Source of the DNA: Oceanispirochaeta sp.
GTDB lineage: Bacteria > Spirochaetota > Spirochaetia > DSM-2461
Assembly: GCA_963676905.2 (NCBI GenBank)
Contig: CAXXVE010000002.1
Span: 241,761-305,760, forward strand
Length of the DNA: 64,000 bases
Direction: 5' to 3'
Of this stretch, positions 5,106-52,846 are shown one piece after another; the first letter of the stretch is position 1, and every line of letters begins with the position of its first letter. The notes under the pieces were generated by a model. The model searched no databases and was not told the DNA's origin. It saw nothing but the letters and a program-made list of their open reading frames with translations. A program made the translations under genes and the position numbers.

Positions 5106-6193
5106 TTTCTGCCTCCTTCTTTCAGCTGAGTCACACTCTCTGTTATTTCGGCTACCGAGGGAATGATTCCGCCCAGCCAGCAGAGCCGCTCTGTCCGGCA
5201 GACCGGTCCGCAGATCCTCTGTACATCATCCGCCATCTGACCGGCGGCCAGTTCGGCGGATACAACCAGCTTTGCACTTTCAGCCAGTTCCCTGAGTCGG
5301 ACCTCGGGGTAGGGGAAAAGAGTCTTCGGCCGCAGGAGTCCCGCTCTGATACCCTTTTTTCTCAGCTCTTCCACGGCGCTTTGGCAGATCCGGGCGGTAA
5401 TGCCGTAGGCAACAAGGAGGACTTCTGCGTCTGAGCACTCCATCTCGTCCTTGAGGGTGCACTCACTCTTCATCTGTTCATACTTGCTCTGGAGCTTCCA
5501 GTTGTGGTCGCTCTGAAGTTTCGGGTCCATCAGGATCGAGGTGATCAGATTGCCCCGGCTCTCCCTGTCTGCGTAGAGGGCCCAGTCTTTCCTTGCCCCT
5601 GTCAGCATCTTCCGCGGTATCTCCACGGCTTCCATCATCTGGCCCACGTAGGCATCGGACAGAATGATGACTGTGGTACGGTATCTGTCAGCAAGGTCAA
5701 AGGCCATATATGTAAAGTCGCACATTTCCTGTGCAGACCAGGGGGCCAGGACAATGCTGTTGTAGTTTCCGTGGCCGCCGCCTTTGACTGTAATATTGTA
5801 GTCGCTCTGTTCCGGCCAGATATTTCCAAGTCCGGGACCGGCTCTCTGAACATCCACCACGACGCAGGGCAGCTCTGCTCCCGCGATATAGGAGAGGCCC
5901 TCAGCCATAAGAGAGAGCCCGGGTCCTGAGGATGCGGTCATTACCCTTGCTCCCGCCGCCGCGGCGCCGTAGAGCATATTGATAACCGAGACTTCCGATT
6001 CGGCCTGAAGAAAATGGCGTCCAGAGAGGGTAAAGTACTTGGCTGCGCCATGGGCAATTTCGCTGGCCGGAGTGATGGGATAGCCGAAGAAGTGGGTGGC
6101 TCCTCCCATGAGGGCACCGTAGATAACCGCTTCATTTCCCTTGACCAGCTGTTTGACAGTTCCGGGGGCTCCGGTAGTTCCATATTCACTCAT
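5102..6193 (-). CDS. vorB: 2-oxoisovalerate:ferredoxin oxidoreductase alpha subunit
   Basis: KGNEAV, FGYPITPASE, QAESE, TASSGPG, QRAGPGLGNI. Confidence 0.9.
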   Translation of the reverse strand: MSEYGTTGAPGTVKQLVKGNEAVIYGALMGGATHFFGYPITPASEIAHGAAKYFTLSGRHFLQAESEVSVINMLYGAAAAGARVMTASSGPGLSLMAEGLSYIAGAELPCVVVDVQRAGPGLGNIWPEQSDYNITVKGGGHGNYNSIVLAPWSAQEMCDFTYMAFDLADRYRTTVIILSDAYVGQMMEAVEIPRKMLTGARKDWALYADRESRGNLITSILMDPKLQSDHNWKLQSKYEQMKSECTLKDEMECSDAEVLLVAYGITARICQSAVEELRKKGIRAGLLRPKTLFPYPEVRLRELAESAKLVVSAELAAGQMADDVQRICGPVCRTERLCWLGGIIPSVAEITESVTQLKEGGRK

Positions 6194-10902: not shown

Positions 10903-11143
10903 CTTCGTACCCTCATGATTTTCATAATGGCGGGTCCCACGAAGATTTCGCTGCAAATGCCCGGTCACTGCCTGTAAGACAGCACCTGATCCCTATAGGT
11001 TTAAGAATAATATCCTGAGCTGAATTATGTCAAGATTTGTATTGATTTGAAAATGTTGACTGATGCAGCCGGCGGCCTTAAGTTTAAACTATAGCGGTTA
11101 CCAAGATGTATTCTTTGAGGCGACTGCAACAGGAGAATCTTAT

Positions 11144-12412
11144 ATGCGCATACTGCATCTGGAAACCAGCTCATTTTTCAGGAAACTTGTTCAGAAAGGT
11201 ACTGATCTTCAGCATGAAGATTACTTCGGCTGTGATTCCATTGCGGAAGCCGTGCAGGTTCTGGAGTCGCAAAATATAGACCTGATTCTCACAGCCCAGG
11301 AGATGACCGACGGAACGGTAGAGAATTTCCTGAAGGACATCTCAGAAGGTTCGTTTAAGGACATTCCCATCATCATGCTCTCCTCGTCAAATGATATGGA
11401 GCTCCGGCGCCGGTATTTCGAGCTTGGAGTGATTGATTTTATCTCCAAGGATAACTTTTCCATCGAAAAACTGAAGGATCAGATCAGCGTGATGGAGAAG
11501 CAGGATGATCTTACAAGGGAACTTCAGCAGGCCTCTATTGCCATAGTGGATGACAGCCTCTTTATCCTGAAAGTGGTGCACAATATCCTTTCCCTCCAGA
11601 ATATTCAGAATGTAGATCTCTACAGAGATCCAAGAGACCTACTGGCCTCGGGTAAGAGCTATGATATCTATATGCTTGATATGTTTATGCCGGGAATGTC
11701 AGGAAAGCAGCTGACTATGGCCCTGAGAAATGAGAATACTATGGCGGTGATCATTATAATCTCATCCATGGACAGGGACAGCACCATTCTGCAGGCCCTT
11801 GAAGCCGGTGCTGATGATTATATTCTAAAGCCTTTTAATGCCGACCTCCTTTCGGCAAGGATCAGAAGCAGTTTTCGAAGTTTTATACTGATGCGCGAAC
11901 TGGAGCAGAAACGCAGAGAAATGGAGTATCTGGCTGTAACTGATGTGCTCACAGGTGCAAAGAACAGGCGTTCCATTCTACAGGTACTGGCGGATGAGAT
12001 TGAAAGTTCCAAAAAGACAGGTATCCCTTTTTCAGTACTCCTTCTGGATGTGGACAAATTCAAATCTGTAAATGATACCTACGGACACCCCGACGGAGAT
12101 ATAGTCCTGCAGCAGCTTTCCCGGTTCTTTCTTGAAAACTGCAGAGAGCAGGATTCCTTCGGCCGCTACGGGGGAGAGGAGTTTCTCCACATTATGTCTG
12201 CAACCCCTCTTGATGAGGCTCTTGAAATAAGTGAAAAGCTGAGGAAGGGGTTCAACAGCCTCTCCTTTGACGATATTGACCCAAAGCTTGTGATGAGCTT
12301 CAGCGGCGGCCTTGCCCAGTGGGAGAAGGAAGATGCCGATACCATCCTGTCGGAGATTGATAATCTTCTCTACGATGCCAAGAGCGGTGGAAGGAACAAT
12401 ATTCAGTCCTGA
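11144..12412 (+). CDS. REC-REC-GGDEF diguanylate cyclase
   Basis: Two receiver folds, DVLTG, RxxD I-site (REQD), RYGGEEF; SD aggag before ATG 11144. Confidence 0.9.
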   Translation: MRILHLETSSFFRKLVQKGTDLQHEDYFGCDSIAEAVQVLESQNIDLILTAQEMTDGTVENFLKDISEGSFKDIPIIMLSSSNDMELRRRYFELGVIDFISKDNFSIEKLKDQISVMEKQDDLTRELQQASIAIVDDSLFILKVVHNILSLQNIQNVDLYRDPRDLLASGKSYDIYMLDMFMPGMSGKQLTMALRNENTMAVIIIISSMDRDSTILQALEAGADDYILKPFNADLLSARIRSSFRSFILMRELEQKRREMEYLAVTDVLTGAKNRRSILQVLADEIESSKKTGIPFSVLLLDVDKFKSVNDTYGHPDGDIVLQQLSRFFLENCREQDSFGRYGGEEFLHIMSATPLDEALEISEKLRKGFNSLSFDDIDPKLVMSFSGGLAQWEKEDADTILSEIDNLLYDAKSGGRNNIQS

Positions 12413-37856: not shown

Positions 37857-37955
37857 CAGCAACGACCGCATAAGCTATAAACCGTTAAGCTGGCGCATTT
37901 TGTGCGAATGCAGAAACTTTGACAGTAGGATTGTCGGTTTCATACGGAGTGATAT
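37857..37955 (-). repeat. Degenerate attC site (R'' ATATCAC instead of ATATAAC)
   Basis: Shares aagctggcg and gacagtagg blocks with the 39797 attC; inverse core mutated. Confidence 0.65.
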
Positions 37956-38072
37956 ACACTTATATACATATTTAATCGCAAGTTCAATAATACTCTCTAT
38001 TTGTCAGGAAATATATAATATAACTTTTCCTGTCAATAATTTCTTCTGTAGATTACAAACAGGAACAGGACT

Positions 38073-39257
38073 TTATCGCGTTGCTCTTTCTAAATATGTG
38101 ATTATCTCCTGAGATGCTGCTTTGCATCCGGGAGCATTTAAAAAAGAACGGGAAACTTTATAACAGTTATTCTTATAATCGCTGTTCTTAAAAATTTCCG
38201 TTATTGCCTTTTGAATGGTTTTTGACTGCAAGTTTCTCAATCTTATTCCGCACTTTAATTCCTCAATACGGAAAGCGACCTCTTCCTGTTCTGATTGAAA
38301 AGGGTAAACACAAAGCGGAACACTGTTAAACAGACCTTCATTTACACTGTTCATTCCGCCGTGCGTTACAAAGAGATCCGTATATTTGAGTATTTCTATC
38401 TGATTCACATGCTTTTTTACTACTACATTTTCCGGAAAGGTTCTTTTCATATCATCATCACAGGCACCAGATAATACAAGAGTACCGTACAAACCAGATA
38501 ATGACTTGATAATATCCGGTATACTATACATCTCTTTCCAGACAGTTCCCATGGATACATAAATAAAGGGGTGCGGGTATCGGGAGTAGTCTTCGGTATC
38601 CGGATCGTCATCCCTCCCGAAAATCATCGGCCCGATAAATCTGTATTTATCTTTATCGAAGGACTCTGAATAGGGCTGGAAATATTCTGAATTGTATACA
38701 ATATTCAGAGGTTCTTCATTCATCATCGAATTAATGAATCCCTGGGGGGCAATACCATGTCTTTTATACATTTCCTTTTGTATTTGACCGGCTTTTTTCA
38801 GATCCCTGATACCCTTTATTCCTGCTTTGCGGAAAAACACGATACTGTTTCTAAAATTCTTCACGTTGCTGTTGAAGGCAAATGTTGATATGGATGAGAT
38901 GGCCGGAATCCCGCAGATTGCAGCAGCATATCTGCCCCATACTGAGATTGAATCATGGATAATATAGTCAGGTTTTATTTGATTTATATCATCAATCAGT
39001 TTATCCAGAATACAGGCTGTTGTTTTGACTATATCATGATAAAGAGACGCCAGATTTTTTCCTATTTCAGATTTTCCGAATCCTTTGGAGAATGAATACT
39101 CTCTGTATTCTGCACCAGTAGCCTCTATTTTATCTTTAAACTCTTCAAGAGAATAATAGATGATTTCTTCCCCATTATTCACAAGTTCTTTTACAAGAGG
39201 TAAAGTCGGGTTTGTATGACCATGTGCCGGAATACTGAAAAAGACTGCTTTTGACAT
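38073..39257 (-). CDS. MGT family (macrolide/OleD-YjiC-like) glycosyltransferase
   Basis: IPAHGHTNPTL, YVSMGT, DLFVTHGGMNSVNEGL..PFQSEQ. Confidence 0.88.
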   Translation of the reverse strand: MSKAVFFSIPAHGHTNPTLPLVKELVNNGEEIIYYSLEEFKDKIEATGAEYREYSFSKGFGKSEIGKNLASLYHDIVKTTACILDKLIDDINQIKPDYIIHDSISVWGRYAAAICGIPAISSISTFAFNSNVKNFRNSIVFFRKAGIKGIRDLKKAGQIQKEMYKRHGIAPQGFINSMMNEEPLNIVYNSEYFQPYSESFDKDKYRFIGPMIFGRDDDPDTEDYSRYPHPFIYVSMGTVWKEMYSIPDIIKSLSGLYGTLVLSGACDDDMKRTFPENVVVKKHVNQIEILKYTDLFVTHGGMNSVNEGLFNSVPLCVYPFQSEQEEVAFRIEELKCGIRLRNLQSKTIQKAITEIFKNSDYKNNCYKVSRSFLNAPGCKAASQEIITYLERATR

Positions 39258-39634
39258 TCTACCTCCAGATAATCGAATGAAAGAGGATGTATATACCGAA
39301 AGGTTTATAGGAATGTATCAGTAGAAGAGTCTTGATTTCCAGTTTTTTCACTATGCCTTTTATATACAATGTGTGATCTTGTACCTTCCAAAGATATTAT
39401 AGACGGAAACTCTAATCAATGTCTTTAATAAGATATGCTATTCTAGTTCTTATGGCTTCCTAAGTTCATTGATACACGCTATTTATCAGGAAAAATATGA
39501 ATTTTCAGGAACACATAATAAATCAGAAATTCCGAGTAATTAACTTTTAAATGCGGTTTTAATTTATTTTTTTGAAATCATTAAGATAAGAATAATTTGA
39601 GAAATTTAGAAAAAATACAGAATATAAGATTTTT

Positions 39635-39790
39635 CTACCTTTCTAGTTGAATTCCCTCTTGCTCTAACCGTCTGACAGCCTCTCTACGGAAATCCTCCGC
39701 ATAGGCCTGAAATTTCTTCCGCGACATGTAAACACCCTCCATAATCAATCATAATCTAACTATAGTTGGTGTCCACTTTCTCAGGGGCAC
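39635..39790 (-). mobile_element. IS3-family left-end remnant (IRL plus 30-codon orfA fragment at 39727-39635)
   Basis: Minus strand TGTGCCCCTGAGAAAGTGGACAC, SD GGAGG, then MSRKKFQAYAEDFRREAVRRLEQEG..stop. Confidence 0.7.
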
Positions 39791-39796
39791 AGTGAT

Positions 39797-39906
39797 ATAT
39801 AACATTCTTTTAAGCTGCAGCTCGTAAGCTGGCGTGAAATCTGACTGCAAAGCAAAATAGCAGATTTCATGACAGTAGGGCTGACAGTATCAAAAGCTTG
39901 TTATAT
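39797..39906 (-). repeat. attC site, 110 bp
   Basis: atataac..gttatat cores, ctttt/aaaag stem with extrahelical C, internal tgaaatctg/cagatttca hairpin; 1 nt after the Fic stop. Confidence 0.9.
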
Positions 39907-39907
39907 T

Positions 39908-40828
39908 TCATTCTTTCAATTCTTTAACGTAGTCTTCTATTGCTTCTCGGGTTGTAAGCCATTCTTTATTAAGCTTTACTGCGGAAATTCTCCCTTTTCT
40001 TGCCAAGAGTGACAAATACTCTTGTGAATAATCACAGTATTCTGATGCCTCTCTTAAATTTATCAACCCTTGTTTCTCTGACGTATTTGGTTTAATGCTG
40101 TTCAGATATATTATCAGTGATCGTTCTATAGCGCGACCAATAAAATTCTCTAAGCTCTCTTCTTTACCTACATTGGCTTCATTTAATACTCTGTAATATT
40201 TCTTTCTATCTACTTTCAATATTACTGTTGGTGGAAAACCATGCTTCATTAGAATCAGATTCATCAGCAGCCGTGCTACTCTTCCGTTACCGTCTATAAA
40301 AGGGTGTATACAAACGAACTTATAGTGAAACTGTGCTGCTAAGATAGGAATTGGTAATGTATGCAGATTGGCATAATACCAGGTGAAAAGATCTGACATT
40401 AACGCTTTAACCTTAATTGCCTGAGGAGGAATTATCCTGGCTCCGACAATTCTAACATTATGGCGACGATATGCTCCTGCCTCGAGATCATCAATTCCTT
40501 TGAGTATTAATCTATGGAGTTCCCGTAGCACATCCTCTGTCAGTTCTGTGCTTTTAGAGATCAATGATTCTATGTATAGAATCCCCTTTTTATGGTTGAT
40601 TGCTTCAAGATGCTCATTAACAGTCCTTCCACCAATCGTAACACCTGTGTTGAGGACAATCTCTGTTTCATTGAGAGAAAGTGTATTTCCTTCTATTGCA
40701 TTTGAGTTGTAAGTCCATTCTAGAGCGAACTGCTCATTTAATTTTCTTACTATGGAGGGATTTAGTGGTCTGTGAGAGTCTAATTCTCTCTTTTTGCCTT
40801 CAATACTGTTTAATAGCTTATCTTCCAT
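39908..40828 (-). CDS. Fic protein (class II) with C-terminal excisionase-like HTH; cassette gene
   Basis: SNAIEGN inhibitory motif, HPFIDGNGRVAR, C-terminal LREASEYC..YLSLLARKG. Confidence 0.92.
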   Translation of the reverse strand: MEDKLLNSIEGKKRELDSHRPLNPSIVRKLNEQFALEWTYNSNAIEGNTLSLNETEIVLNTGVTIGGRTVNEHLEAINHKKGILYIESLISKSTELTEDVLRELHRLILKGIDDLEAGAYRRHNVRIVGARIIPPQAIKVKALMSDLFTWYYANLHTLPIPILAAQFHYKFVCIHPFIDGNGRVARLLMNLILMKHGFPPTVILKVDRKKYYRVLNEANVGKEESLENFIGRAIERSLIIYLNSIKPNTSEKQGLINLREASEYCDYSQEYLSLLARKGRISAVKLNKEWLTTREAIEDYVKELKE

Positions 40829-40856
40829 ATCGGTTCCTTGCGATTTTCATCTATCC

Positions 40857-40888
40857 GATATTGTAAGGCATAAATTAATTTCATGCAA
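40857..40888 (-). promoter_or_regulatory. Cassette-internal promoter TTGCAT-17-TACAAT overlapped by an imperfect palindrome
   Basis: Minus strand TTGCAT GAAATTAATTTATGCCT TACAAT immediately after the GTTATAT core. Confidence 0.65.
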
Positions 40889-40986
40889 ATATAACGCCGT
40901 TTTTAGCTGATTCCGTCAGTAGGCACGATTGTTGCGAATGCAAGAATCGTGACATCCCGACTGACAGCTTCAAAAGCTCGTTATGT
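40889..40986 (-). repeat. attC site, 98 bp
   Basis: atataac..gttatgt; tttt-tagctg/cagctt-c-aaaa; cacgatt/aatcgtg hairpin. Confidence 0.9.
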
Positions 40987-40991
40987 ACCCC

Positions 40992-42068
40992 TTATTTCTT
41001 TAGTAACTCATAAAGGGGTCTGTTTACATAAATGATTTCTTTTCCTAAGCGAAAAGATTCAAGTACTCCTATTGCTTCTAATTCTTTGAGATATTTGCTG
41101 GCTGTTCTTCTTTCTGCTATTCCTGCATCTACCAAATAAGCAATTTTAGTGTATGGCTGAATGAACAATAACTCAACCAATTCTTTTGAATATATTGTCT
41201 TAGGAAGTTTTTCTTTGCATATATCAATTGTTTGATCTAGCAGACTTGCTATCGATGAAATTATTCCATATGTCTCCTTGGCAGTCTCTTCCACTGCTTT
41301 CAACATATAGATTATCCACTCCTCCCAGTTTTCATTTACATGCATGTCCTGTAGGAGTCGATAATATTCTGATTTATTCCTGATAATATAAGAGCTAAGA
41401 AACAGTATCGGTGAATCTAATAATCTCTGAAGGACAAGATATAGTACATTTATTATTCTGCCTGTCCTTCCGTTGCCATCATAAAATGGGTGAATTGATT
41501 CGAACTGGTAGTGAATGATTGCCATTTTGATCAGTGGGTCTGTACCATCTTCTTGATGGATGTATTTCTCAAGATTTGATAATAGATCAAGTATGACATG
41601 TTCATTGTCAGGTGGTGTATATATCACGTCACCGGTTCTATCATTTACTAAGCTGGTTCCTGGTAGTTTTCTGAAACCAGCCGAATTTTGCTCCAGCTCT
41701 TCCTGAATCGAGAGAATTGTATTTATCCGAAGTAAGTTGCTTTCTTTAATTTGCTTATATCCAAGCCATAGCGCAGATCTATAATTAAGAACCTCTTTGG
41801 TATTTGGATCTATATTTGTTTGTTTTGCCACCATAGCCTTATATAGGTCATCCTGGGTTGTTATGATATTTTCTATTTCAGAACTGGCTGATGCTTCTTT
41901 CAGGATTATTGAACTTAATAAAATTGAATCATTCGGTAGTAATGAGCAATAACCCTTTAACTTTGCTAACTCCCGGTTAGCACTGATTGCCTGCTTGAGA
42001 ACACTCTTTGACTCAATATCATATTTTGGTGGTAGTTTTGGTAATTCGTTGTTTGCTTGCTTACTCAT
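40992..42068 (-). CDS. Fic protein with Fic_N domain and C-terminal wHTH (SoFic-like); cassette gene
   Basis: EASASSEIENI, HPFYDGNGRTGR, AERRTASKYLKEL. Confidence 0.92.
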   Translation of the reverse strand: MSKQANNELPKLPPKYDIESKSVLKQAISANRELAKLKGYCSLLPNDSILLSSIILKEASASSEIENIITTQDDLYKAMVAKQTNIDPNTKEVLNYRSALWLGYKQIKESNLLRINTILSIQEELEQNSAGFRKLPGTSLVNDRTGDVIYTPPDNEHVILDLLSNLEKYIHQEDGTDPLIKMAIIHYQFESIHPFYDGNGRTGRIINVLYLVLQRLLDSPILFLSSYIIRNKSEYYRLLQDMHVNENWEEWIIYMLKAVEETAKETYGIISSIASLLDQTIDICKEKLPKTIYSKELVELLFIQPYTKIAYLVDAGIAERRTASKYLKELEAIGVLESFRLGKEIIYVNRPLYELLKK

Positions 42069-42071
42069 ATA

Positions 42072-42171
42072 ATGTACATAATATCATCTTTCATGTACAT
42101 GTCAATCTATCGTGTGCATGTTTATAGGATTTTTGCCCACGTCATCGTTCTCATGTGCATTCTGTGTACAT
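42072..42171 (-). promoter_or_regulatory. Cassette-internal promoter (TTGACA-16-TATTAT) with five RTGTRCAT boxes
   Basis: Boxes at 42072, 42093, 42112, 42153 and 42164 (+ strand). Confidence 0.6.
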
Positions 42172-42274
42172 AACTCCCAAATCAATTGCGTTTTCGTCCC
42201 AAAGGGGTGGCGGACAATTTGCGTAAGCAAATTTGTGTGCCAAAGAAAACGTCAATTGCATTTGATTGTTATCT
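42168..42274 (-). repeat. attC site, 107 bp
   Basis: acataac..gttatct; aaat-caattg-cgttttc / gaaaacg-T-caattg-C-attt with two extrahelical bases. Confidence 0.95.
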
Positions 42275-42289
42275 GGTCTTTCATCTTCT

Positions 42290-43078
42290 TTATTCAGTTC
42301 CATATGAACTATTTAAATATCTAACAACGCTTTGTATAGATTTACTATTTGGATCAATAAAATCCATATGAAAACCTCCCTCTATTTCAACAAAGGAGAA
42401 CTGAGTGTCAGAACTATCACTAATTTCCGCAAACTTTCTTGTCATTTCAATTGATAGATATTCATCGTTATCGCCATGGAAAATAGTTATTGGAGTTTTT
42501 ATCGGAAGCAGTTCAATTGGTGAGGCATTTTTATATCTTTCGAGGTTTTCTTCTGGAGAACATTGTAGTAATTCTTTAACAGCTTGATTTCCGGAATTAT
42601 TTCGATAACAGCCTATTAAATCTAAAATCGGTGCTAATCCAACAATATGTCTTGGATTGATCTCTACTTTATTTTTTTTAATATTATTATTAGTTCCTAA
42701 CCATATTGCTAAATGTCCACCAGCTGAATGACCCATTAAAATAATTTCATTCAAATCGATTTTATCATAAGTTTTTTTTAATTGAATTAAATGATTAATA
42801 GAGTCTATTGAATCTTCAAATGGATCTATCCATTTCCGATTAGATGATCCGGTTCGCCGATATTCAATATTCCATACAATATAGTTTTCTTGTAATAATT
42901 TTTCACAGACTTGATCCATTTGGTGAAGATCATATGGCATTTTCCAAAAACCACCATGAAAGAGACATATTGTCCCTTTTATATATCCTTTGGGAATATA
43001 TAAGTTACCATATTGGGAAATGTCCTTACCATATGCTGAATTAATTAATGTATTTTCTTCAATAATATTCAATTGCAT
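42290..43078 (-). CDS. alpha/beta hydrolase (esterase/lipase, BD-FAE-like); cassette gene
   Basis: FHGGFW, NIEYRR, GHSAGGH, HGDND, GFHMD. Confidence 0.88.
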   Translation of the reverse strand: MQLNIIEENTLINSAYGKDISQYGNLYIPKGYIKGTICLFHGGFWKMPYDLHQMDQVCEKLLQENYIVWNIEYRRTGSSNRKWIDPFEDSIDSINHLIQLKKTYDKIDLNEIILMGHSAGGHLAIWLGTNNNIKKNKVEINPRHIVGLAPILDLIGCYRNNSGNQAVKELLQCSPEENLERYKNASPIELLPIKTPITIFHGDNDEYLSIEMTRKFAEISDSSDTQFSFVEIEGGFHMDFIDPNSKSIQSVVRYLNSSYGTE

Positions 43079-43131
43079 GCACCTTCGATTCTTGATTATC
43101 AACTTCTTTTATTTCTTTAATATTTTTCTCA

Positions 43132-44440
43132 TGTTCTCTCCACTACATAGTTACCAAAAGTCCAACCTCTTCAGTTACACACGCGGAATGAATTCATAGT
43201 CCAGTATATCATATATTTTAAGCTCATGTTCATTCAGATAGCCCAAGAAGAACTCTCGGAACCAGACACGATAGATTCCATTTCCTATGTCTTTGAATCC
43301 AAGTTTTTTCTCTTTGAATGCTGTCCCTACAAATATACTGTCTTTCTTACCGACTCTGATTATTCCATTCTTGCAGATATATCGTACTTTGTATTCAGGC
43401 GGGTAATGCCACTCTTTTATCTCATTCGGATACCGTCTTTTAGAACGTTCATAAACTGTTTTGGGTGTAACCATACCAAGGGCTTCATGAGGTCTTTCCT
43501 CGTTATACTCTTTGGTAAATCTGTTGAACTTTATCTGCTGACTTCTCAGTGATTTACCTGGTTCAATGCATGCTTCTGCTTTCAATTCTCTATGCATTCT
43601 TTCATGACTTCCATTCTGCTGCGGAGAGGCCGGATCGCTGAACACCGGATAGATCCCAAGTTCCATTAACCAAACAGAAAATTGTGTATACCGACCAAGG
43701 GATCTTATGTTGGCAAACGGGGAACCATTGTCTGTGTGCAACTGTTCGGGAAGTCCATATTCTTTGAATACAGCCTCAAAAACAGGCTTAGACTGCGTTA
43801 AATTGGGCCTGGAGAGCCCTTTTATGCGTATGATGTACTTACTGAAGTTATCGCAAATGGTAAGCGGATAGCAGTACTTCTTGTCTCCAGTCCTGAACTC
43901 ACCTTTATAGTCGGCACTCCATATCTCATTACAATGATCGGCTATGAACTTGGGATAGCGTTTCTCAATATGCACATGTCTTTTACGTTCCGGAATGAGA
44001 TCATTCTTTTTGAGTATGTTGTTTATTGTGGACTTGCAGGGAATATGAGAATAAATGCCATCCTTCTCAAGGCGCCATCGTATTTTTTTCCCACCCCATC
44101 GTTTATGCTGACTTCTTATTTCAAGAATACGTTCTTCAATCGCTGCTGGAGTTTTATTCGGTGAATGGTGAGGAGCACGGGATTTTGGTTGAAGTCCTGC
44201 CATTCCCTCTTCCTGGTATCGTTTAATGTATTTGTAACCAGTAGTCCTGCTGATACAAAAATCTTTACATAGGCCAGAGAAAGTAAATCGATCTGTACTC
44301 CAAATTAAGATGAACTCTTCTTTTTGATCCATAATCGTTTTCTCCATTAAAGGCATGATCGTCTCCTTTATTGTAAACCATCTGCCTTTAACTGTAATTT
44401 ATCTACTTGGATCTTTGTCCACTATGTTATTAATCCGTAC
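43132..44440 (-). mobile_element. IS481-like insertion sequence, about 1.3 kb
   Basis: Imperfect IRs ACATAGTGGACAAAGATCCAA / ACATAGTTACCAAAAGTCCAA; ctca duplicated at 43128-43131 and 44441-44444 (tentative TSD). Confidence 0.75.
43175..44356 (-). CDS. DDE transposase (IS481 family, rve core)
   Basis: HTH, WSADYKG, TDNGSPF, PQQNGSHERMHRELK, YNEERPHEAL. Confidence 0.9.
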   Translation of the reverse strand: MPLMEKTIMDQKEEFILIWSTDRFTFSGLCKDFCISRTTGYKYIKRYQEEGMAGLQPKSRAPHHSPNKTPAAIEERILEIRSQHKRWGGKKIRWRLEKDGIYSHIPCKSTINNILKKNDLIPERKRHVHIEKRYPKFIADHCNEIWSADYKGEFRTGDKKYCYPLTICDNFSKYIIRIKGLSRPNLTQSKPVFEAVFKEYGLPEQLHTDNGSPFANIRSLGRYTQFSVWLMELGIYPVFSDPASPQQNGSHERMHRELKAEACIEPGKSLRSQQIKFNRFTKEYNEERPHEALGMVTPKTVYERSKRRYPNEIKEWHYPPEYKVRYICKNGIIRVGKKDSIFVGTAFKEKKLGFKDIGNGIYRVWFREFFLGYLNEHELKIYDILDYEFIPRV

Positions 44441-44448
44441 CTCAATCC

Positions 44449-44556
44449 AGATAACGCCTTCATAACCCGCACGGCGTACATGGCGCTGTTTTTGTCGAGC
44501 GGAGCGACTTACAAAAACTGTTACATAGCCGGGTCGGGTTCATGAAATTGTTATAT
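44449..44556 (-). repeat. attC site, 108 bp
   Basis: agataac..gttatat; ttcat-aacccg / cgggtt-C-atgaa; gtttttgt/acaaaaac hairpin. Confidence 0.95.
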
Positions 44557-44567
44557 GTCATCCATTT

Positions 44568-45614
44568 TCAATTGCTAACGATTACAATCGAATGAACTAC
44601 ATCTCCAAATTTATTATCCGGCATTGGCTCTTCAAGTTCTATCCATTGATCATTTACCCAATATCCAGGATAAAATCGCCTATTTGCAGATCTATGTCCT
44701 GCAGTTATTACATTATCTCTATATACAACGATAGTATTTAGGTAGTATTTTTCTTCTTCTGGTGCGAGCTCAATCCATTCCTCATTTTTCCAATAGCCAT
44801 TTCTATTAACAGCTAAATAAATATCTTCTTTCACCTTAATCATTTCTCGAACTGAATTATATGAATCTTTATCAGGAGATTTAATCTCATTCCATTCTTC
44901 ATTCAACCAATACCCTGAAATCATTTCTTTATTTTCATTTTTGCAAAATCCGAGCAAATATAGATCATTATCAATGATTTTGATTGAACTGACTTCACCA
45001 TTTGTCATATTTCGTGGAACTGGTAAATCTTTCCATTCGCTATTAATATAATACCCTGGCGAATCACTAAATTCGGACATAGCTTGATAGCTTCCGGTCC
45101 AATATATATTATTATTGTAAATTGTAAATGAACTTAAAATTCGGTTATCGGTTAAAGGATCAGATAGTGATGTCCAACTTCCGTTTTTCCAATAGCCTGA
45201 TACAACATTACCTAACTCATTATAATAAGAACCAGCTGCATATATATTATCTTTTTCAAGAATAACTGTTTCAATAAATCCCTTCCAGCTCTCTTCTGGT
45301 AAGTCTAACTCATTCCATTTGCCATTTATCCAATAACCAGGTATCCAACCTTGTCCTTCAACACGAATATATCCTCCAACAACAATAAATTCTTTATTTG
45401 CTGCGAGTGCATATGTTCCGCAATTATCCATTTGATCAGGATTCTCAATATCTATCCATGTACCATTTTCCCAATAACCAGGAATTGTTTTTCCTGTCAT
45501 ATCTGGAGCAGAACCTAATGCATATATTGAATAAGAGTAGTCACACCCAGAAATGAATATAAAAACAGTGATTAATAGTAAAAAATAAGTGAACGTTTTT
45601 ATTTCTTTTAACAT
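44568..45614 (-). CDS. Lipoprotein with about 7 GYWxNGxWxxL repeats (beta-propeller-like); cassette gene
   Basis: Lipobox ISG-C; repeats GYWENGTW, GYWINGKW, GYWKNGSW, GYWLNEEW, GYWVNDQW; start ATG 45614. Confidence 0.8.
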   Translation of the reverse strand: MLKEIKTFTYFLLLITVFIFISGCDYSYSIYALGSAPDMTGKTIPGYWENGTWIDIENPDQMDNCGTYALAANKEFIVVGGYIRVEGQGWIPGYWINGKWNELDLPEESWKGFIETVILEKDNIYAAGSYYNELGNVVSGYWKNGSWTSLSDPLTDNRILSSFTIYNNNIYWTGSYQAMSEFSDSPGYYINSEWKDLPVPRNMTNGEVSSIKIIDNDLYLLGFCKNENKEMISGYWLNEEWNEIKSPDKDSYNSVREMIKVKEDIYLAVNRNGYWKNEEWIELAPEEEKYYLNTIVVYRDNVITAGHRSANRRFYPGYWVNDQWIELEEPMPDNKFGDVVHSIVIVSN

Positions 45615-45634
45615 AAAATCTCCAATTTTTGTCC

Positions 45635-45733
45635 ATATAACACCCTTTTTAGCTGCAGGAGGTGGCAGCGTGCAAAATGAATGCATATACCTGGAACCTG
45701 ACCCCGACTGTCTGCTACAAAAGATTGTTAAGT
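45635..45733 (-). repeat. attC site, 99 bp, closing HUH cassette copy B
   Basis: atataac..gttaagt; ctttt-tagc / gcta-C-aaaag; identical to 51215-51313 beyond the crossover. Confidence 0.9.
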
Positions 45734-46604
45734 CAGCATCATTTATAAGAAATTCAATTATTCTGCGGACTTACCTGAATAGTCTTTTCTTCTGAGAAAA
45801 TAGTAAACGAGAGGCGTTCATAAGTAAAGGAGTTTAAAAATTTCAGAGAATCTGTTTCTGAGGTATTATATTTGCAATATGGCTGCTTTTGGAGACAGTC
45901 CTCGATTATGAATCTGTCTTCGTAGATGTTCATGCTATTCCTAAAAGTTGGCCGTGGCCTGGTGGCCAGCAATACTTTGACAGATATAATCTTACTATCA
46001 GCGGAAGAGGTTTCCCTCGACCAAAGACATCGATAGTTTCCAAGGGTGTATCGCATTCTGGACATGTCTCTTCGTCATCAATGATTTCTTTAACCCCACC
46101 AAGCTCTTCCACACGGATTCTTTCCAGTGTTTCAACTTGCCGGTTAGAATACAATCCATAGTTCCTGATCGTGACTGTTCCTTTCGGTGGTACATGATTA
46201 AAGTAGCGTTCTCTGAATATCCGCATACTGAGTACTGTCTTTCTCGTTTCACCACGATATCTCTCGTAAATTGTCGCGGTATCGTTATAGTTATCGAAAT
46301 CAATGTCTTCTATATCCGAAATAAACCCACAGATGGATTTAGACAGGTAATCAACAATATTGTCTCCATTGAACTTATGGATGGCCGGATAAACAGTGTA
46401 CTCCCTATCCTGGCAGTTTCTTGTTTCAAAGCGGACAGTATTTCTTTTCACACCGGACAATTTCTTAATAAAATGCGGAAGTGTGAGCAACGCTGTTAAA
46501 GTTCCTATAATCAGCGGCGAAAAAGTTCCGCTTTTACAGACATAAAAAGGGGCAAATATCCTAAAGTAGGGTTACCACACCAACTACGAAAGGAACCTGC
46601 CCCT

Positions 46605-47885
46605 ATGTGTCTAAAGGAAGATCGCATGCACGTTGCGCGCATCATGGCCAATCAAGGCCACACACAAAAGTACATAGCCGAGTATCTCGGCGTCAGCGAC
46701 CGAATGGTCAGAAAATACCTGACCCCCGAGTTCGGAACCCACCCCCGGAAATCCCGGGAAAGCATCCTTAAACCATTCCATCCCATCATAGAAGATACAC
46801 TGGAAAATGATCCATACTTTAATTTGGTTTATCTTCACGAAAGACTGCAAAAAGCCGGTTACTCAGGCAAAATAACAATCCTTAGAGACTATGCCCGGCA
46901 GTATAGAAAGAAACTCATCGAGAAGGCTGTCATCCGGTTTGAGACAGAGCCTGGCCGTCAGGCTCAGGTGGACTGGAAAGAGTGCGGCAAAATGGAAATT
47001 GACGGCCAGATCCAGAAGGTCTATGCCTTTGTCATGTTGATGGGTTACAGCCGTATCCCCTTTGTGCAGTTTACCCTGGACATGACTTCAGCAACGCTAC
47101 TCCAGGCCCATCTGAAAGCATTCCAATACTTTGGTGCCGTTCCACAGGAAATCCTTTATGACAACATGAGAACGGCCTGGTACAACAGCGGCGGTGTCTG
47201 GCAGGTAAACTCACAACTCCTGGAGTTCGCTTCAGCCTGTGGCTTCAGACCTCTTCGCTGTCAGGTTCGCAGACCTCAGACGAAAGGAAAAGTTGAGCGT
47301 TTCATCGGCTATCTGGGGCACAGCTTCCTGATCCGTGAAGAGGCTTTGAAGTCATGTACTCTACAGGATCTTAATCAATCCGTTATCGAGTGGATCTCTA
47401 GAGTCGTGGAAACACAAATGAGTCAGTTCCGGCAGACACGGAAAGAGCGCTTTGACTATGAGAAGCAGTTTATGAATCCCTGGAATCCGGGGGCGGCTCC
47501 CGATGTGAGACTTGTGAAAGAACTGCTAGTTTCTCGGGAAGGCGTAATTCGCTATGAAACCAATACATACAGTGTCCCTGCTGATCATATCGGACAGACT
47601 GCAACGCTGAAGATTGACACACTGGAGAGAACCGCCGATGTCACCGTTGCTGGAAAGGTCGTAAGGTCTGTGGATATTCTGGCGAAAGGCGCTAAATCAG
47701 TCTCAATCCGCAAGGCCGACCGGGACTCTCTTCTGAAACGGTGGAAACGGGAGAACCGGCAGAGCCTAAGGGCAATTGTAGGCCGTTCAGAAAAAAGGGA
47801 TACTCCTCACTCATCGCTGATTCAGACTGAAGTCGAAATACGCCATCCCAATCACTATGATCAGATAATCGGAGTTGGCGCATGA
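46605..47885 (+). CDS. istA: IS21 transposase
   Basis: RFETEPGRQAQVDW, ILYDNM, RPQTKGKVER. Confidence 0.95.
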   Translation: MCLKEDRMHVARIMANQGHTQKYIAEYLGVSDRMVRKYLTPEFGTHPRKSRESILKPFHPIIEDTLENDPYFNLVYLHERLQKAGYSGKITILRDYARQYRKKLIEKAVIRFETEPGRQAQVDWKECGKMEIDGQIQKVYAFVMLMGYSRIPFVQFTLDMTSATLLQAHLKAFQYFGAVPQEILYDNMRTAWYNSGGVWQVNSQLLEFASACGFRPLRCQVRRPQTKGKVERFIGYLGHSFLIREEALKSCTLQDLNQSVIEWISRVVETQMSQFRQTRKERFDYEKQFMNPWNPGAAPDVRLVKELLVSREGVIRYETNTYSVPADHIGQTATLKIDTLERTADVTVAGKVVRSVDILAKGAKSVSIRKADRDSLLKRWKRENRQSLRAIVGRSEKRDTPHSSLIQTEVEIRHPNHYDQIIGVGA

Positions 47886-48646
47886 ACGTACTCAGGGAGA
47901 CCATTGAAACCCGCTTGAATGAGCTGGGACTTGAGTTCATGGCTGCAGGACTGGAAAGCTATCTGGAAGCTCAGTCTCATACCGAGAATACGCTGACACA
48001 ATCAATTGCAGACCTGTTGGAGCTGGAGTATATTCCCCGGAAAGAACGAGCTGCCAAGAGTCGTCTGAAGCTCTCAGGAATGCCCTGTATCAAGCTGCTA
48101 GAAGACTTTGATCCGGCGTGGCTTAAGGGCGGTCTGACCGCCAGTCAGTTAGCCGATCTTTCTAGTTTGGCATTTATTGAAAGGAAGGAGAATCTGGTCC
48201 TGATGGGACCCAGCGGTCTGGGAAAGACCCACCTGATGCTGGCCCTGGCTCACAAGGCCTGTCTGAATGGTTTTACGGTGTGGTACACAAGCTGCATCGA
48301 CCTGATGGAGAACCTCACCAATGCTCGTGAACAGGGGCGATTAAAGCGGCGGCTAACCTGGTTACGGAAACCTCATTTGATCCTGGTCGATGAAGTCGGC
48401 TACGAGAACCTGACCAAAGAACAGGCCAACCTGTTTTTTCAGATGGTGAATACACGCTACGAACAGGGAAGCGTGATAATCACGACGAATAAACCCTTCG
48501 GTCGTTGGGCTGAGATCCTGGGTGATGAGGCCATTGCTACGGCGACCATCGACAGGCTGCTCCATCATGCTCATGTATTGAGCCTCAAAGGTGATTCATA
48601 CCGGATGAAAGACCGGTTGAAAATAGGGATCGTTGATCCTGTTTAA
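47882..48646 (+). CDS. istB: IS21 AAA+ ATPase helper
   Basis: GPSGLGKTH, ILVDEVGY, ITTNKPF..W, IDRLLHH, GDSYR. Confidence 0.95.
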   Translation: MNVLRETIETRLNELGLEFMAAGLESYLEAQSHTENTLTQSIADLLELEYIPRKERAAKSRLKLSGMPCIKLLEDFDPAWLKGGLTASQLADLSSLAFIERKENLVLMGPSGLGKTHLMLALAHKACLNGFTVWYTSCIDLMENLTNAREQGRLKRRLTWLRKPHLILVDEVGYENLTKEQANLFFQMVNTRYEQGSVIITTNKPFGRWAEILGDEAIATATIDRLLHHAHVLSLKGDSYRMKDRLKIGIVDPV

Positions 48647-49352
48647 TTTTACCCAAAAGCGGAACTTTTAAACCGATGAATTCAGGAACTTTTTAGGCGT
48701 TGTTGACAGCGGAAGCAGAGTTTCCCGTACTGTATCACAGATAATAGAGTATTTCATTGAAGGATAAGATTCGAACCAGTCATTCTCTGCGTTGACTCCT
48801 CCATCCGTGACGATACAGTGCATATGCGGTTTATAGGCAAGACCGACACTATGGCTTTGGAAGACAAGTATTACCCCAGGGGTTATCCCTGATTCTTTGC
48901 ACATATTCTTGAATCCAAGATCTACCGCATGGAAAAACGAACTGATGAACTGCCGACGATCTATCAGCCATAGCGTATTCATTTCTTCTGGGAGAGAGAC
49001 TATCAGATGATAATGCCCCATGGGTAATATCTTGGCGTGCATTTTACGGTTCCACTTTGCCTGATTCTTTTTAGAGCAATTCGGGCAACCCCGTTGATTG
49101 CAGGGATTGTATAAAACTGTATGGGTATGACATTTTGGGCAGTAGACGACACGTCCTCCCAAATCGATTGTACGGCAGGATAGAATATTGCTTGCGGCTT
49201 GTGCCTGTTCTTTATCTAATAGAGCTCCCGGCGTGGTTGCCCATATTTCGACCTGTGACATAAAATCCCCCATTGCCATGCAATGGGGAACTGCTGAAAA
49301 CAGTTTAGTGCTTCAATTCTTCAGGATTTTTTTTGATTTTTTTCTCATGTCG

Positions 49353-49463
49353 ACTTAACGCCCTTTTGAGCTGCAGCTCGTTTACTGGCGTGAAATCTGC
49401 CTGCGAAGCAGAACAGCAGATTTCATGATCAGTAGAGCTGACTGCTCCAAAAGATTGTTACAT
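49353..49463 (-). repeat. attC site, 111 bp
   Basis: acttaac..gttacat; ctttt-gagc / gctc-C-aaaag; tgaaatctgc/gcagatttca hairpin; R'' overlaps the stop codon. Confidence 0.95.
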
Positions 49464-50221
49464 GTCAATTTCATTCTTTATTTTATTCTTATCAATAAGT
49501 ACGAATCTACAATAAGTGGTCAGTGTTAATAGTAAACCAGATATAATTGCTAGAATAATTAAGAGTAATACATAACGTAATGTATTTGTCCCTAATTTTT
49601 CAAAAATTGTATTAATTTTTAACATAGATGATATAAATGAACTTAAAACACCCCACACCCATGAAACAAAACCTAATATAATCGAGAGAACAATTGTTGT
49701 ATCGAAATGCTCCTTTACTAGATTTAAACTTTTTTTCCAAATCTTAAGTAAATTTAATTTTTCTGTATCCACAAAAGTCACGATATAAAATCCTGTTATA
49801 TTTATTATAATAAACGCGAGCGTATCTATAGTCATTATTAAATAATATATAGCGGATGGGATATTTTTACCCGCCAATAAAGTAGGAACAAATTTTAATG
49901 CAACTATTATCATTTGGTAAGGTATATACACTTGAACTAAGAATCTAAATATTTTCTTAATACAATTTTTTCATAATTGTTATATTTTTCTTGATAAAAG
50001 TGAATTACAAATGTAAGAAAAATAATATTAAAAAGTAATGAAAATGTGCTTCCTGCTAACGGTGGTGTATAAATAGATAGCATTTGATAAAATAAATTAT
50101 TACTAAAATAATAATCCAATATAAAAATCGGTATATAAAGCACAAGAAGATAAATAATAATCTTTTTTATATCGCTTTTAATTATTTTTGTACTGTCTTT
50201 TATGATATCAATTGAATTCAT
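49458..50221 (-). pseudogene. Frameshifted multi-pass membrane protein cassette (ORFs 50221-49937 and 49931-49458)
   Basis: One extra A near 49955 would join ..KIVL to KKIFRFLVQVYIPYQ..; both halves are hydrophobic. Confidence 0.7.
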
Positions 50222-50244
50222 TTTTTTTCCTTTTCTCTATGTAC

Positions 50245-50414
50245 ATGTAACATCCAATTAACCTGCGTACCGGCCCGGCCCAGCCGGGTATTGGCGATTT
50301 TCTTGCTTTCCAGTGTATCCCCTTAACTGTTATACGGAAACAACTTTTTGTTGTTCCTCCAGTTTCTGCAAGAAACTTGACAATAGGAACGACAGGTTCA
50401 ATTGTTTGTTATGT
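50245..50414 (-). repeat. Unusually long attC site, 170 bp
   Basis: atgtaac..gttatgt; caatt-aacctg-cgt / acg-A-caggtt-C-aattg; R'' contains the upstream stop codon. Confidence 0.85.
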
Positions 50415-51152
50415 GGTGATTTGTTCATTCCTCATATTCTCAACATTGTCTATAAGTGCCAATATTTCTTTTTTATTATTTGTTGGATTTAGATATTGAT
50501 CCAAAAGGGATATATAATATTCACTGTAAGTGAAATTTATGGCACATAAGTCATTACACGATTCATATATTGTCTTATGAAAAATATTATATTCTTTCAT
50601 TAACTCAGGTCTAAAGGATTTAATAAGATCTTTACCAACCAATCTGGATATCTTTCTTATTTCATTTTCTTTTACTGTCTGAGCAAGACATTTTCTGTAA
50701 TGGCCTATTAAATATTGCGTGTCTGGAGCCCAAAGTTTTGCTAACTGTTTTCCGTCAATAATTATTTCTTTTTTATAGTATTTATTATTACCGTATAAAC
50801 AAAGTGAATCAGAGCATACTATCAGCCAGTAATCATAGTTTTCTTGAAGATATTTTTCATTTACAATATTAATATCTATACCGGTTAAGAATTTAATTTC
50901 AGAATTAATTTTCTTTTCATTCTTCAATAGTTCATTTGATTTGATTGTATCATTATCTTTAGTTAGAATACATAAAACATCTAAGTCTGAGACTTCAGGA
51001 ATTTCTTCACCTCTTGAAACAGAACCCTGCAGACGAATTTCTAATATTTTATCTCTATAACAACTTTTTAGTATTTTAACTGCTGCATCTATATACTTCA
51101 TATATTGAGGTTTTATTTTTTTATATTCAGAAGTATTCTTCAATAATATCAT
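50409..51152 (-). CDS. Nucleotidyltransferase (Pol-beta superfamily); cassette gene
   Basis: LQGSVSRGE..SDLD motif plus a helical C-terminal domain. Confidence 0.82.
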   Translation of the reverse strand: MILLKNTSEYKKIKPQYMKYIDAAVKILKSCYRDKILEIRLQGSVSRGEEIPEVSDLDVLCILTKDNDTIKSNELLKNEKKINSEIKFLTGIDINIVNEKYLQENYDYWLIVCSDSLCLYGNNKYYKKEIIIDGKQLAKLWAPDTQYLIGHYRKCLAQTVKENEIRKISRLVGKDLIKSFRPELMKEYNIFHKTIYESCNDLCAINFTYSEYYISLLDQYLNPTNNKKEILALIDNVENMRNEQITT

Positions 51153-51214
51153 AGTGATTAATTGATTCCTAACTTATTTGATACCTATTATTTTTTCATT
51201 AAATTTCTCTATCT

Positions 51215-51313
51215 ACATAACACCCTTTTTAGCTGCAGGAGGTGGCAGCGTGCAAAATGAATGCATATACCTGGAACCTGACCCCGACTGTCTGCTACAA
51301 AAGATTGTTAAGT
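51215..51313 (-). repeat. attC site, 99 bp, closing HUH cassette copy A
   Basis: acataac..gttaagt with the same stem as 45635-45733. Confidence 0.9.
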
Positions 51314-51509
51314 CAGCATCATTTATAAGAAATTCAATTCTTCTGCGGACTTACCTGCATAGTCTTTTCTTCTGAGAAAATAGTAAACGAGAGGCGTTCA
51401 TAAGTAAAGGAGTTTAAAAATTTCAGAGAATCTGTTTCTGAGGTATTATATTTGCAATATGGCTGCTTTTGGAGACAGTCCTCGATTATGAATCTGTCTT
51501 CGTAGATGT

Positions 51510-52625
51510 TCATGCTATTCCTAAAAGTTGGCCGTGGCCTGGTGGCCAGCAATACTTTGACAGATATAATCTTACTATCAGCGGAAGAGGTTTCCCTCGA
51601 CCAAAGACATCGATAGTTTCCAAGGGTGTATCGCATTCTGGACATGTCTCTTCGTCATCAATGATTTCTTTAACCCCACCAAGCTCTTCCACACGGATTC
51701 TTTCCAGTGTTTCAACTTGCCGGTTAGAATACAATCCATAGTTCCTGATCGTGACTGCTCCTTTCGGTGGTACATGATTAAAGTAACGTTCTCTGAATAT
51801 CCGCATACTGAGTACTGTCTTTCTCGTTTCACCACGATATCTCTCGTAAATTGTCGCGGTATCGTTATAGTTATCGAAATCAATGTCTTCTATATCCGAA
51901 ATAAACCCACAGATGGATTTAGACAGGTAATCAACAATATTGTCTCCATTGAACTTATGGATGGCCGGATAAACAGTGTACTCCCTATCCTGGCAGTTTC
52001 TTGTTTCAAAGCGGACAGTATTTCTTTTCACACCGGACAATTTCTTAATAAAATGCGGAAGCAGAGTTTCCCGTACTGTATCACAGATAATAGAGTATTT
52101 CATTGAAGGATAAGATTCGAACCAGTCATTCTCTGCGTTGACTCCTCCATCCGTGACGATACAGTGCATATGCGGTTTATAGGCAAGACCGACACTATGG
52201 CTTTGGAAGACAAGTATTACCCCAGGGGTTATCCCTGATTCTTTGCACATATTCTTGAATCCAAGATCTACCGCATGGAAAAACGAACTGATGAACTGCC
52301 GACGATCTATCAGCCATAGCGTATTCATTTCTTCAGGGAGAGAGACTATCAGATGATAATGCCCCATGGGTAATATCTTGGCGTGCATTTTACGGTTCCA
52401 CTTTGCCTGATTCTTTTTAGAGCAATTCGGGCAACCCCGTTGATTGCAGGGATTGTATAAAACTGTATGGGTATGACATTTTGGGCAGTAGACGACACGT
52501 CCTCCCAAATCGATTGTACGGCAGGATAGAATATTGCTTGCGGCTTGTGCCTGTTCTTTATCTAATAGAACTCCCGGTGTGGTTGCCCATATTTCGACCT
52601 GTGACATAAAATCCCCCATTGCCAT
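51510..52625 (-). CDS. IS91-like HUH (Y2) endonuclease/transposase, intact, in a 1484-bp cassette
   Basis: Zn domain CRT.DLGG..CPKC..YNPCNQRGCPNC, YHLIVSLP, HUH PHMHC, DYLSKS, HVPPKG..IRNYG. Confidence 0.88.
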   Translation of the reverse strand: MAMGDFMSQVEIWATTPGVLLDKEQAQAASNILSCRTIDLGGRVVYCPKCHTHTVLYNPCNQRGCPNCSKKNQAKWNRKMHAKILPMGHYHLIVSLPEEMNTLWLIDRRQFISSFFHAVDLGFKNMCKESGITPGVILVFQSHSVGLAYKPHMHCIVTDGGVNAENDWFESYPSMKYSIICDTVRETLLPHFIKKLSGVKRNTVRFETRNCQDREYTVYPAIHKFNGDNIVDYLSKSICGFISDIEDIDFDNYNDTATIYERYRGETRKTVLSMRIFRERYFNHVPPKGAVTIRNYGLYSNRQVETLERIRVEELGGVKEIIDDEETCPECDTPLETIDVFGRGKPLPLIVRLYLSKYCWPPGHGQLLGIA

Positions 52626-52698
52626 GCAATGGGGAACTGCTGAAAACAGTTTAGTGCTTCAATTCTTCAGTGAATTTTTCTGATTTTTTCTCATGTCG

Positions 52699-52846
52699 AC
52701 TTAACATAATTTATTCGTTGTTCTATATAATTCCCAGATTCACCCGGACACATGTTGAAGTGTATAGCGATTCAATGATATCCGGCTGATAATTCAGTAT
52801 AAGTAGGTTATATCCACTGTTATGCTGACTCAGTATAATTCTAGCA
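52699..52846 (-). other. Candidate array-head site (attI-like or decayed attC) with possible Pc-like extended -10
   Basis: GTTAAGT core at 52705-52699; tcagtataa direct repeats at 52794 and 52830; TGcTAGAAT at 52846-52838. Confidence 0.45.

Follow-up and report, generated by a model that had tools for sequence, protein, structure and literature searches.

How does a gene for an enzyme of the IS91 HUH transposase family come to lie twice within one array of integron gene cassettes, and what might it be doing there? The question is raised by a 64,000-nucleotide stretch of DNA from Oceanispirochaeta sp. (GenBank assembly GCA_963676905.2, contig CAXXVE010000002.1, positions 241,761 to 305,760; "the window" below means this whole stretch), which is part of the 324-kb second replicon (C2) of a two-contig, 4.81-Mb genome; positions on the other contig carry the prefix C1. 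To judge by its alpha-glucosidase, the organism is a free-living spirochaete; the closest matches that bear a name are in a Spirochaetales metagenome-assembled genome (72%) and Spirochaeta isovalerica (65%). A reading made from the sequence alone had proposed that the gene is packaged as an integron cassette. Our analysis shows that the 1,484-bp unit carrying the gene is a bona fide integron gene cassette and that it belongs to a small, coherent clade, every testable member of which is packaged as a cassette with an attC site of the type found in its local host array.

Across ~37.9 to 52.8 kb of the window, the G+C content falls from ~0.5 to 0.33-0.37, and in this region an imperfect hairpin with the pattern xxTAAC...GTTAxx comes after each minus-strand open reading frame (ORF). 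The array and the copies of the unit, including those found elsewhere in the genome by whole-genome blastn (copies C, D, and E), are laid out as follows.

37876..52841, minus strand: whole array, comprising an attI and ~10 cassettes of low G+C, with no intI alongside
52705..52841, minus strand: orphan attI, 137 nt, with three GAATTAT repeats, adjoining copy A
51221..52704, minus strand: HUH cassette copy A, 1,484 bp, intact, the first cassette after the orphan attI
51215..51313, minus strand: attC of copy A, 99 nt; R'' ACTTAAC ... R' GTTATGT
45641..49358, minus strand: HUH cassette copy B, with its ORF split by IS21
45635..45733, minus strand: attC of copy B, 99 nt, a covariance-model match
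49353..49463, minus strand: attC of the cassette preceding copy B; the G of its R' is the junction with copy B
46482..48708, plus strand: IS21-family element encoding IstA (426 amino acids) and IstB (254 amino acids), with a 7-bp target duplication, GCGGAAG
C1:2351274-2352758: copy C, intact
C1:3075567-3079282: copy D, split by a second, independent IS21
C1:2391790-2392511: copy E, truncated by another insertion

On the coding (minus) strand, the unit runs from G|TTAAGTC (the bar marks the junction) through a 5' leader of ~80 to 100 nt (79 or 97 nt, depending on whether the first or the second ATG is taken as the start), the ORF, and a 197-nt spacer to the 99-nt attC. Copy B, like copy A, is exactly 1,484 bp long once the 2,227-bp IS21 and one copy of its 7-bp target duplication are subtracted, and the two copies differ by ~10 substitutions and by poly-A length changes. 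Both start with G|TTAAGTC and end with ...AAAAAGGGTG|TT (attC end GGGTG|TT). The equal lengths, the handful of single-nucleotide differences, the exact G|TT boundaries, and the shared 99-bp attC described in the sequence-only reading are all borne out.

To describe the hairpins, we aligned six sites of the window with three more taken from related loci, nine in all, and built a covariance model on the alignment; it replaced a heuristic hairpin finder that had given too many false matches. The consensus fold (RNAalifold), in which 11 of the 19 pairs are backed by compensatory changes, is a textbook attC, with a 4-bp R''/R' pair, an unpaired spacer, and an L''/L' stem that has unpaired bases in its 5' (L'') arm. 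The model scores the attC of copy A at 74.7 bits (E = 3e-16) and that of copy B at 75.4 bits, finds nine minus-strand sites in the window and on the plus strand only a weak echo of one, and recovers 31 attCs in six clusters from the whole genome. Rfam gave zero matches in the window. In all clusters, the R'' of every cassette complements the remainder of the preceding R' (GTTAAGT/ACTTAAC for the HUH cassette). The TTAAGTC at the 5' end of the unit is the complement of the R'' of its own attC (GACTTAAC), as expected of a cassette that was circularized and reinserted by integron integrase. The two attCs flanking the HUH cassette both span the entire model (positions 1-111), and their sequences are not the same, so the unit is not an insertion sequence (IS) that interrupts an attC; it has the attC fold, the G|TT boundaries, the R'/R'' complementarity, the co-oriented array, and the insertion at attI or attC that characterize integron cassettes. 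As a separate observation, the conserved unpaired L'' base in the window attCs (39797-51313) is G on the ORF-sense strand (C on the bottom strand), unlike in the metagenomic arrays described below, which have the usual C on top.

The five copies occupy four arrays on both replicons; two are intact, two are split by IS21, and one is truncated. Their 5' flanks are all unlike: copies B to E each start directly after the terminal G of a distinct attC 3' end, and copy A starts at the attI. Where the 3' end is preserved, as it is in four copies, the unit continues into TT, a differing R' remainder, and differing downstream cassettes. Because the five copies sit in five different contexts, in an assembly of two contigs, they do not stem from a tandem or segmental duplication or from an assembly artifact, possibilities that had been named as refuting the proposed arrangement. 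Comparison with an 87%-related replicon yielded no empty site, the region beside the amylase gene being rearranged there. The HUH cassette is the sole cassette present in this genome at five copies of ~99% identity; the other cassettes never exceed two copies, and those are diverged. The IS21 in copy D (C1:3076192-3078418) has the target duplication GTGATA and lies 24 bp from the copy B site in the same relative orientation. Two of the five genomic IS21 copies are thus independent insertions within one 30-bp stretch of the HUH gene, which looks like an IS21 target hot spot.

The flank of copy A bears on how the copies were placed. The orphan attI is 87% identical to the segment between the start of intI and the first cassette of its array (C1:3064016-3064152) and 89% identical to a third copy at C1:2350750. 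Since the flank is homologous to the attI beside intI, copy A is a cassette inserted at attI, which is the preferred insertion reaction of integron integrase. This intI, the only integron integrase gene of the genome (C1:3062697-3063626; locus L009/L029), scores 389.5 bits against TIGR02249 (cut-off, 265). The G|TT junction by itself does not settle whether IntI or the HUH enzyme made the insertions, since the IS91 family targets GTTC/CTTG adjoining a hairpin; IntI is favored because copy A lies at an attI, R' and R'' are complementary, and the attC is of the host type. Placement of the five copies by integron-integrase recombination at attI and attC sites is thus well supported, and the positions at distinct attC ends and at attI lend weight to the earlier proposal that the gene was copied by integrase-type cassette recombination. 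Two further points concern the attI copies themselves, two of which (52705-52841 in the window and C1:2350750-2350887) have no integrase. Both orphans begin at the same nucleotide after GCTA, and the boundary of the intI-linked copy is preceded by GTTCCTTGG, which holds both IS91 target tetranucleotides.

Homologous loci in other genomes and metagenomes tell the same story. Their DNA came from long contigs, from metagenome-assembled genomes (MAGs) labelled Spirochaetia, Treponemataceae, Paludibacter, and Sunxiuqinia, and from 69 metagenome contigs. The ingroup consists of 42 testable relatives at 32-52% identity, from metagenomes and from MAGs labelled Spirochaetia or Bacteroidales. At homologue loci, 108 of 110 attC matches lie on the same strand as the gene. 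The attC starts 172-209 nt past the stop codon in 35 of 44 testable loci, and a second attC ends 59-110 nt before the start codon in 22 of 33. The nine loci outside the downstream range comprise two outgroups at 23-26% identity, six with short attCs, which were recovered with filters off or by direct reading of the sequence, and one (L077) in which the attC starts normally and is then interrupted. The layout of gene, spacer, motif (see below), and attC is found at 42/42 ingroup loci. The homologues are thus consistently flanked by attCs and not by IS91 ends, and the refutation that the sequence-only reading had named for itself does not hold. The canonical IS91-like outgroups (23-26%) have a hairpin-TAT|CTTG end 35-60 nt past the stop and match the attC model at chance level only. 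In each homologue locus, the R' remainder at the 5' end pairs with the cassette's own R'', and the cassette's attC is of the same type as its neighbors', a type that varies between hosts. For this reason the attC was not brought in by a transposon, and we ruled out the idea that it is a transposon-borne imitation of the site.

Several observations at these loci stand on their own. A tandem pair of HUH cassettes occurs in one metagenomic contig (locus L051, ~1375-1700). In another genus of the same phylum (loci L102-L104), a 30%-identical, single-tyrosine IS91-like gene lies between attC-like sites that are ~160 nt long and branched and whose R boxes complement each other (CGTATAAC / GTTATACG), and the link to attC may extend to a wider branch of the IS91 family. 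The array that holds the closest (52%) homologue (L016) contains two IS110-family transposase genes against or inside attCs (4667-5740 and 10955-12028), which look like insertions of the IS1111-attC type. In L043, L056, L059, L067, L025, L024, and L087-L089, nearly all cassettes open with GTTRRRY-(N)GAC, after which comes a short GC-rich tetraloop hairpin (GCC-TTCG-GGC, for example), a general cassette feature that is not seen in the spirochaete arrays. We considered this hairpin as a terIS-like end and rejected it because it follows the R' of nearly every cassette there, HUH or not.

The cassette's cargo and the DNA around it have the following parts.

51510..52625, minus strand: ORF for the IS91-family single-tyrosine HUH transposase, 371 amino acids
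52614..52634, minus strand: start-codon hairpin, a perfect 9 bp with the first ATG in its loop
51322..51337, minus strand: oriIS-like motif of copy A, TTGAATTTCTTATAAA, ~170 nt past the stop and 8 nt before R'' (51313-51307)
45742..45757, minus strand: oriIS-like motif of copy B

That the gene encodes an IS91-like HUH enzyme was confirmed by matches to Pfam Zn_Tnp_IS91 (3.8e-21) and Y2_Tnp (2.1e-16) and to NCBIfam NF033538, the IS91 family transposase model (187.5 bits versus a cut-off of 125). In a database twin (P0001), translation begins at the second ATG (52607), giving 365 amino acids. A search of 1.84 billion representative proteins gave 4,605 matches at E <= 1e-3 but only 43 at E <= 1e-30, which marks out a small side branch of the family, and the nearest plasmid-borne IS91 members are only 25-32% identical to the protein. 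Neither 37 other genomes of the same order nor 400 sampled genomes of the phylum contained a close homologue, solved structures include no relative of the protein, and PADLOC gave no match for it. Across 28 relatives at 31-53% identity, the zinc cysteines, H89/H91, KPH152xH154C, Y233, and R294xYGxYSN are invariant. The start-codon hairpin is kept across the clade in structure and not in sequence (mean z-score, -2.2; 17 of 34 loci below -2); it looks like a translational restraint of the transposase.

The spacer is a second peculiarity of these cassettes, ~190 nt lying between ORF and attC in HUH cassettes versus almost none in most others. Comparison across relatives revealed no conserved peptide encoded there, and a 59-amino-acid ORF coupled to the transposase stop was discarded as not real, its equivalents in relatives being unrelated or missing. 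What the spacer does hold is a motif with the consensus ATTGAAAT(T/G)CT-ATA-AGG, placed 10-25 nt ahead of the attC. In its minimal form, it occurs upstream of the attC in 13/13 HUH cassettes versus 4/46 other cassettes. The published oriIS of ISCR27 is GCGGTTGAACTTCCTATACC, located 236 bp past the stop (PMC8894482), that of ISCR1 is GTGGTTTATACTTCCTATACCC (PMC13023784), and a conserved IS91 oriIS lies 167 bp past the coding sequence (PMC5737581). The motif resembles these published origins, is specific to HUH cassettes, and sits at the distance typical of ISCR elements; we regard it as a likely oriIS-like site. This changes one part of the sequence-only reading: its true cassette, integrase-type placement, and attC-flanked homologues stand, and its picture of a HUH gene devoid of IS91 features does not, given the oriIS-like motif.

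How might such a cassette work? IS91 TnpA nicks at oriIS, and synthesis from the 3'-OH runs back through the gene (PMC5714925, PMC13181058); the displaced bottom strand gives rise to a single-stranded circle, which is the insertion-competent intermediate (PMC13181058). By analogy, we propose that the HUH enzyme would nick at the oriIS-like motif beside the attC and that the nick would prime strand-displacement or rolling-circle synthesis back through the cassette. Because the gene always points the same way as the array, the strand displaced from a nick at the motif would, as in IS91, be the bottom one, comprising that of the cassette plus whatever lies upstream. It is in the bottom strand that attC adopts the fold on which IntI acts. 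On an excised circle, the same nick could start rolling-circle copying. The module would in this way either make more single-stranded, recombinogenic cassette DNA available or copy circles that have been excised. Our favored reading, which we hold to be fairly probable, is that the unit is a cassette placed by IntI and equipped with a rolling-circle module, selfish in character, whose HUH nickase boosts single-stranded cassette DNA; its selfish nature and the nickase role are what we infer from sequence and from the analogy with IS91. Selfishness would explain why the HUH cassette, and no other, is present in five near-identical copies, and it fits the number of copies, the position at attI, and the tandem pair in one metagenomic contig. 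More tentatively, and in our view on the unlikely side, the cassette could be a self-amplifying parasite or helper of the integron, whose HUH enzyme would feed IntI by spinning off single-stranded bottom-strand copies or by replicating excised circles; by IS91-style read-through, it could in addition take upstream cassettes and attI fragments to new sites and so seed the orphan arrays of this genome.

Several points weigh against this reading. The second tyrosine is absent from the enzyme, which has DYLSKS at this position (Y-x-x-x-S/A clade-wide, YxxRY in the outgroups), and IS91 activity needs both tyrosines of its YxxxY motif (PMC5714925). The identification of the motif as an ISCR-like oriIS is likely; it rests on agreement with the published ISCR27 site at 12-13 of 15 positions and on location. 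No terIS equivalent was found at the HUH cassettes, nor do they have an oriIS end in which a subterminal hairpin leads directly into GTTC/CTTG; the motif is followed instead by 10-25 nt and then by the attC. The gene is dispensable to the host, given that only two of its five copies are unbroken. Finally, the integrase gene has a single in-frame TAA between its N-terminal and catalytic halves, because of which IntI-dependent movement is at present possible only if the stop arose recently, is read through, or is an error.

In one alternative, the HUH enzyme inserts the unit by itself, independently of the integrase, with the attC hairpin serving as the end structure and GTT(A/C) in the R' boxes as the target. 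Elements of the IS91 family insert at 5'-GTTC/CTTG adjoining a subterminal palindrome without duplicating the target (PMC13181058), and hairpin-TAT|CTTG is the end seen in canonical relatives. The exact position of the junction within the G-TT that both sides share is ambiguous, and intI is a pseudogene, yet the copies are ~99% identical. Self-insertion nevertheless appears distinctly unlikely to us: copy A meets an attI, a site that lacks the attC hairpin, at the very same G|TT; all neighboring cassettes, which encode no HUH protein, show identical boundaries, R'/R'' complementarity, and host-type attCs; and the conserved motif lies upstream of the attC and not at the end of the unit. The broken copies, the lost second tyrosine, and the missing terIS would suit a different view, in which an IS91-like gene was trapped once in a cassette, has been carried passively, and is now inactive. 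Such an inert passenger is hard to square with ~40 diverged loci that have an intact ORF, invariant catalytic motifs, and a conserved noncoding motif at conserved spacing, and we consider it very improbable.

The retention of catalytic residues across 31-53% identity could also be read as domestication, the nuclease serving the host or the integron either in defense against single-stranded DNA invaders or in folding, shuffling, or creating cassettes. The array carries defense-type cassettes, including SoFic (5e-116), and TnpA-REP, a domesticated Y1 HUH enzyme acting on genomic hairpins, offers a precedent (PMC8266576). To this account we give little probability, since a domesticated gene would hardly be multicopy with three of five copies disrupted, missing from 37 genomes of the same order and, as regards close relatives, from the 400-genome phylum sample, without a PADLOC match, and furnished with the transposon-like traits of an origin-like motif and an expression-limiting start-codon hairpin.

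The same arrays hold other noteworthy residents. Two adjacent cassettes of the window (39908-42068) encode Fic-domain proteins, and the PADLOC SoFic match of one of them (5e-116) implies that defense genes are stored in the array. A 1,360-bp IS481-family element with a 393-amino-acid transposase is present at 43126-44485 of the window and at C1:3080672-3082031; in these two different arrays, it starts 5-6 nt after an attC R' box and may be site specific for cassette junctions.

Comparison with known systems places the HUH cassette between two worlds. Like ISCR1, ISCR27, IS91, IS801, and IS1294, it encodes a zinc-ribbon and HUH transposase that passes NF033538, and, as in ISCR elements, the gene points to a TTGAA-N-TTC-(N)-TATA motif ~170 nt past the stop. 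It differs in that its protein is ~25-30% identical to plasmid-borne members and has a single tyrosine where IS91 has YxxxY, and in that it has neither a hairpin-TAT|CTTG end nor a terIS and is bounded by integron recombination sites, always including attC. A single tyrosine is also a feature of ISCR enzymes. With sedentary chromosomal integrons and clusters of attC sites lacking integron integrases (CALINs), it shares the attC architecture, the G|TT junctions, the co-orientation, an array-specific attC type, and duplicated cassettes; what would set it apart is cargo from a family of enzymes that nick and join single-stranded DNA, with an origin-like site against the attC. IS1111-attC elements and group IIC-attC introns are likewise mobile elements specialized for integron arrays; these split an attC, whereas the HUH cassette leaves the flanking attCs whole and is itself a cassette. 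Rolling-circle plasmids and TnpA-REP also have a HUH enzyme at a hairpin-adjacent site, the Y1 enzyme of the latter being tied to genomic hairpin repeats (PMC8266576), but the HUH cassette shows no signs of autonomous replication or of REP-like dispersal. A literature search, the scope of which was searchable full text and which left many subscription papers outside, returned group IIC-attC introns, IS1111-attC elements, and the proximity of ISCR1 to class 1 integrons, but no account of a cassette that is itself an IS91-family gene, in line with the earlier impression that this arrangement had not been described.

Of the bacterial systems that operate on folded single-stranded DNA, integron recombination and HUH transposition are the best known, and to our knowledge they have so far been linked by neighborhood only, ISCR1 being found next to class 1 integrons. 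The lineage of IS91-type enzymes described here occurs in its entirety within cassettes and has an origin-like site against the attC. The supply of single-stranded attC substrate limits cassette movement. If the enzyme acts at the attC, the cassette would have a built-in generator of just this substrate and would be the first cassette to promote its own spread; if it is merely selfish cargo, integrons would prove open to colonization by transposons for which the integrase is the means of travel. Should the self-amplifying interpretation be true, a dedicated source of single-stranded DNA would offer a possible handle on how cassette arrays spread and arise. With one 1.5-kb cassette and one protein, the system is simple enough for these ideas to be tested.

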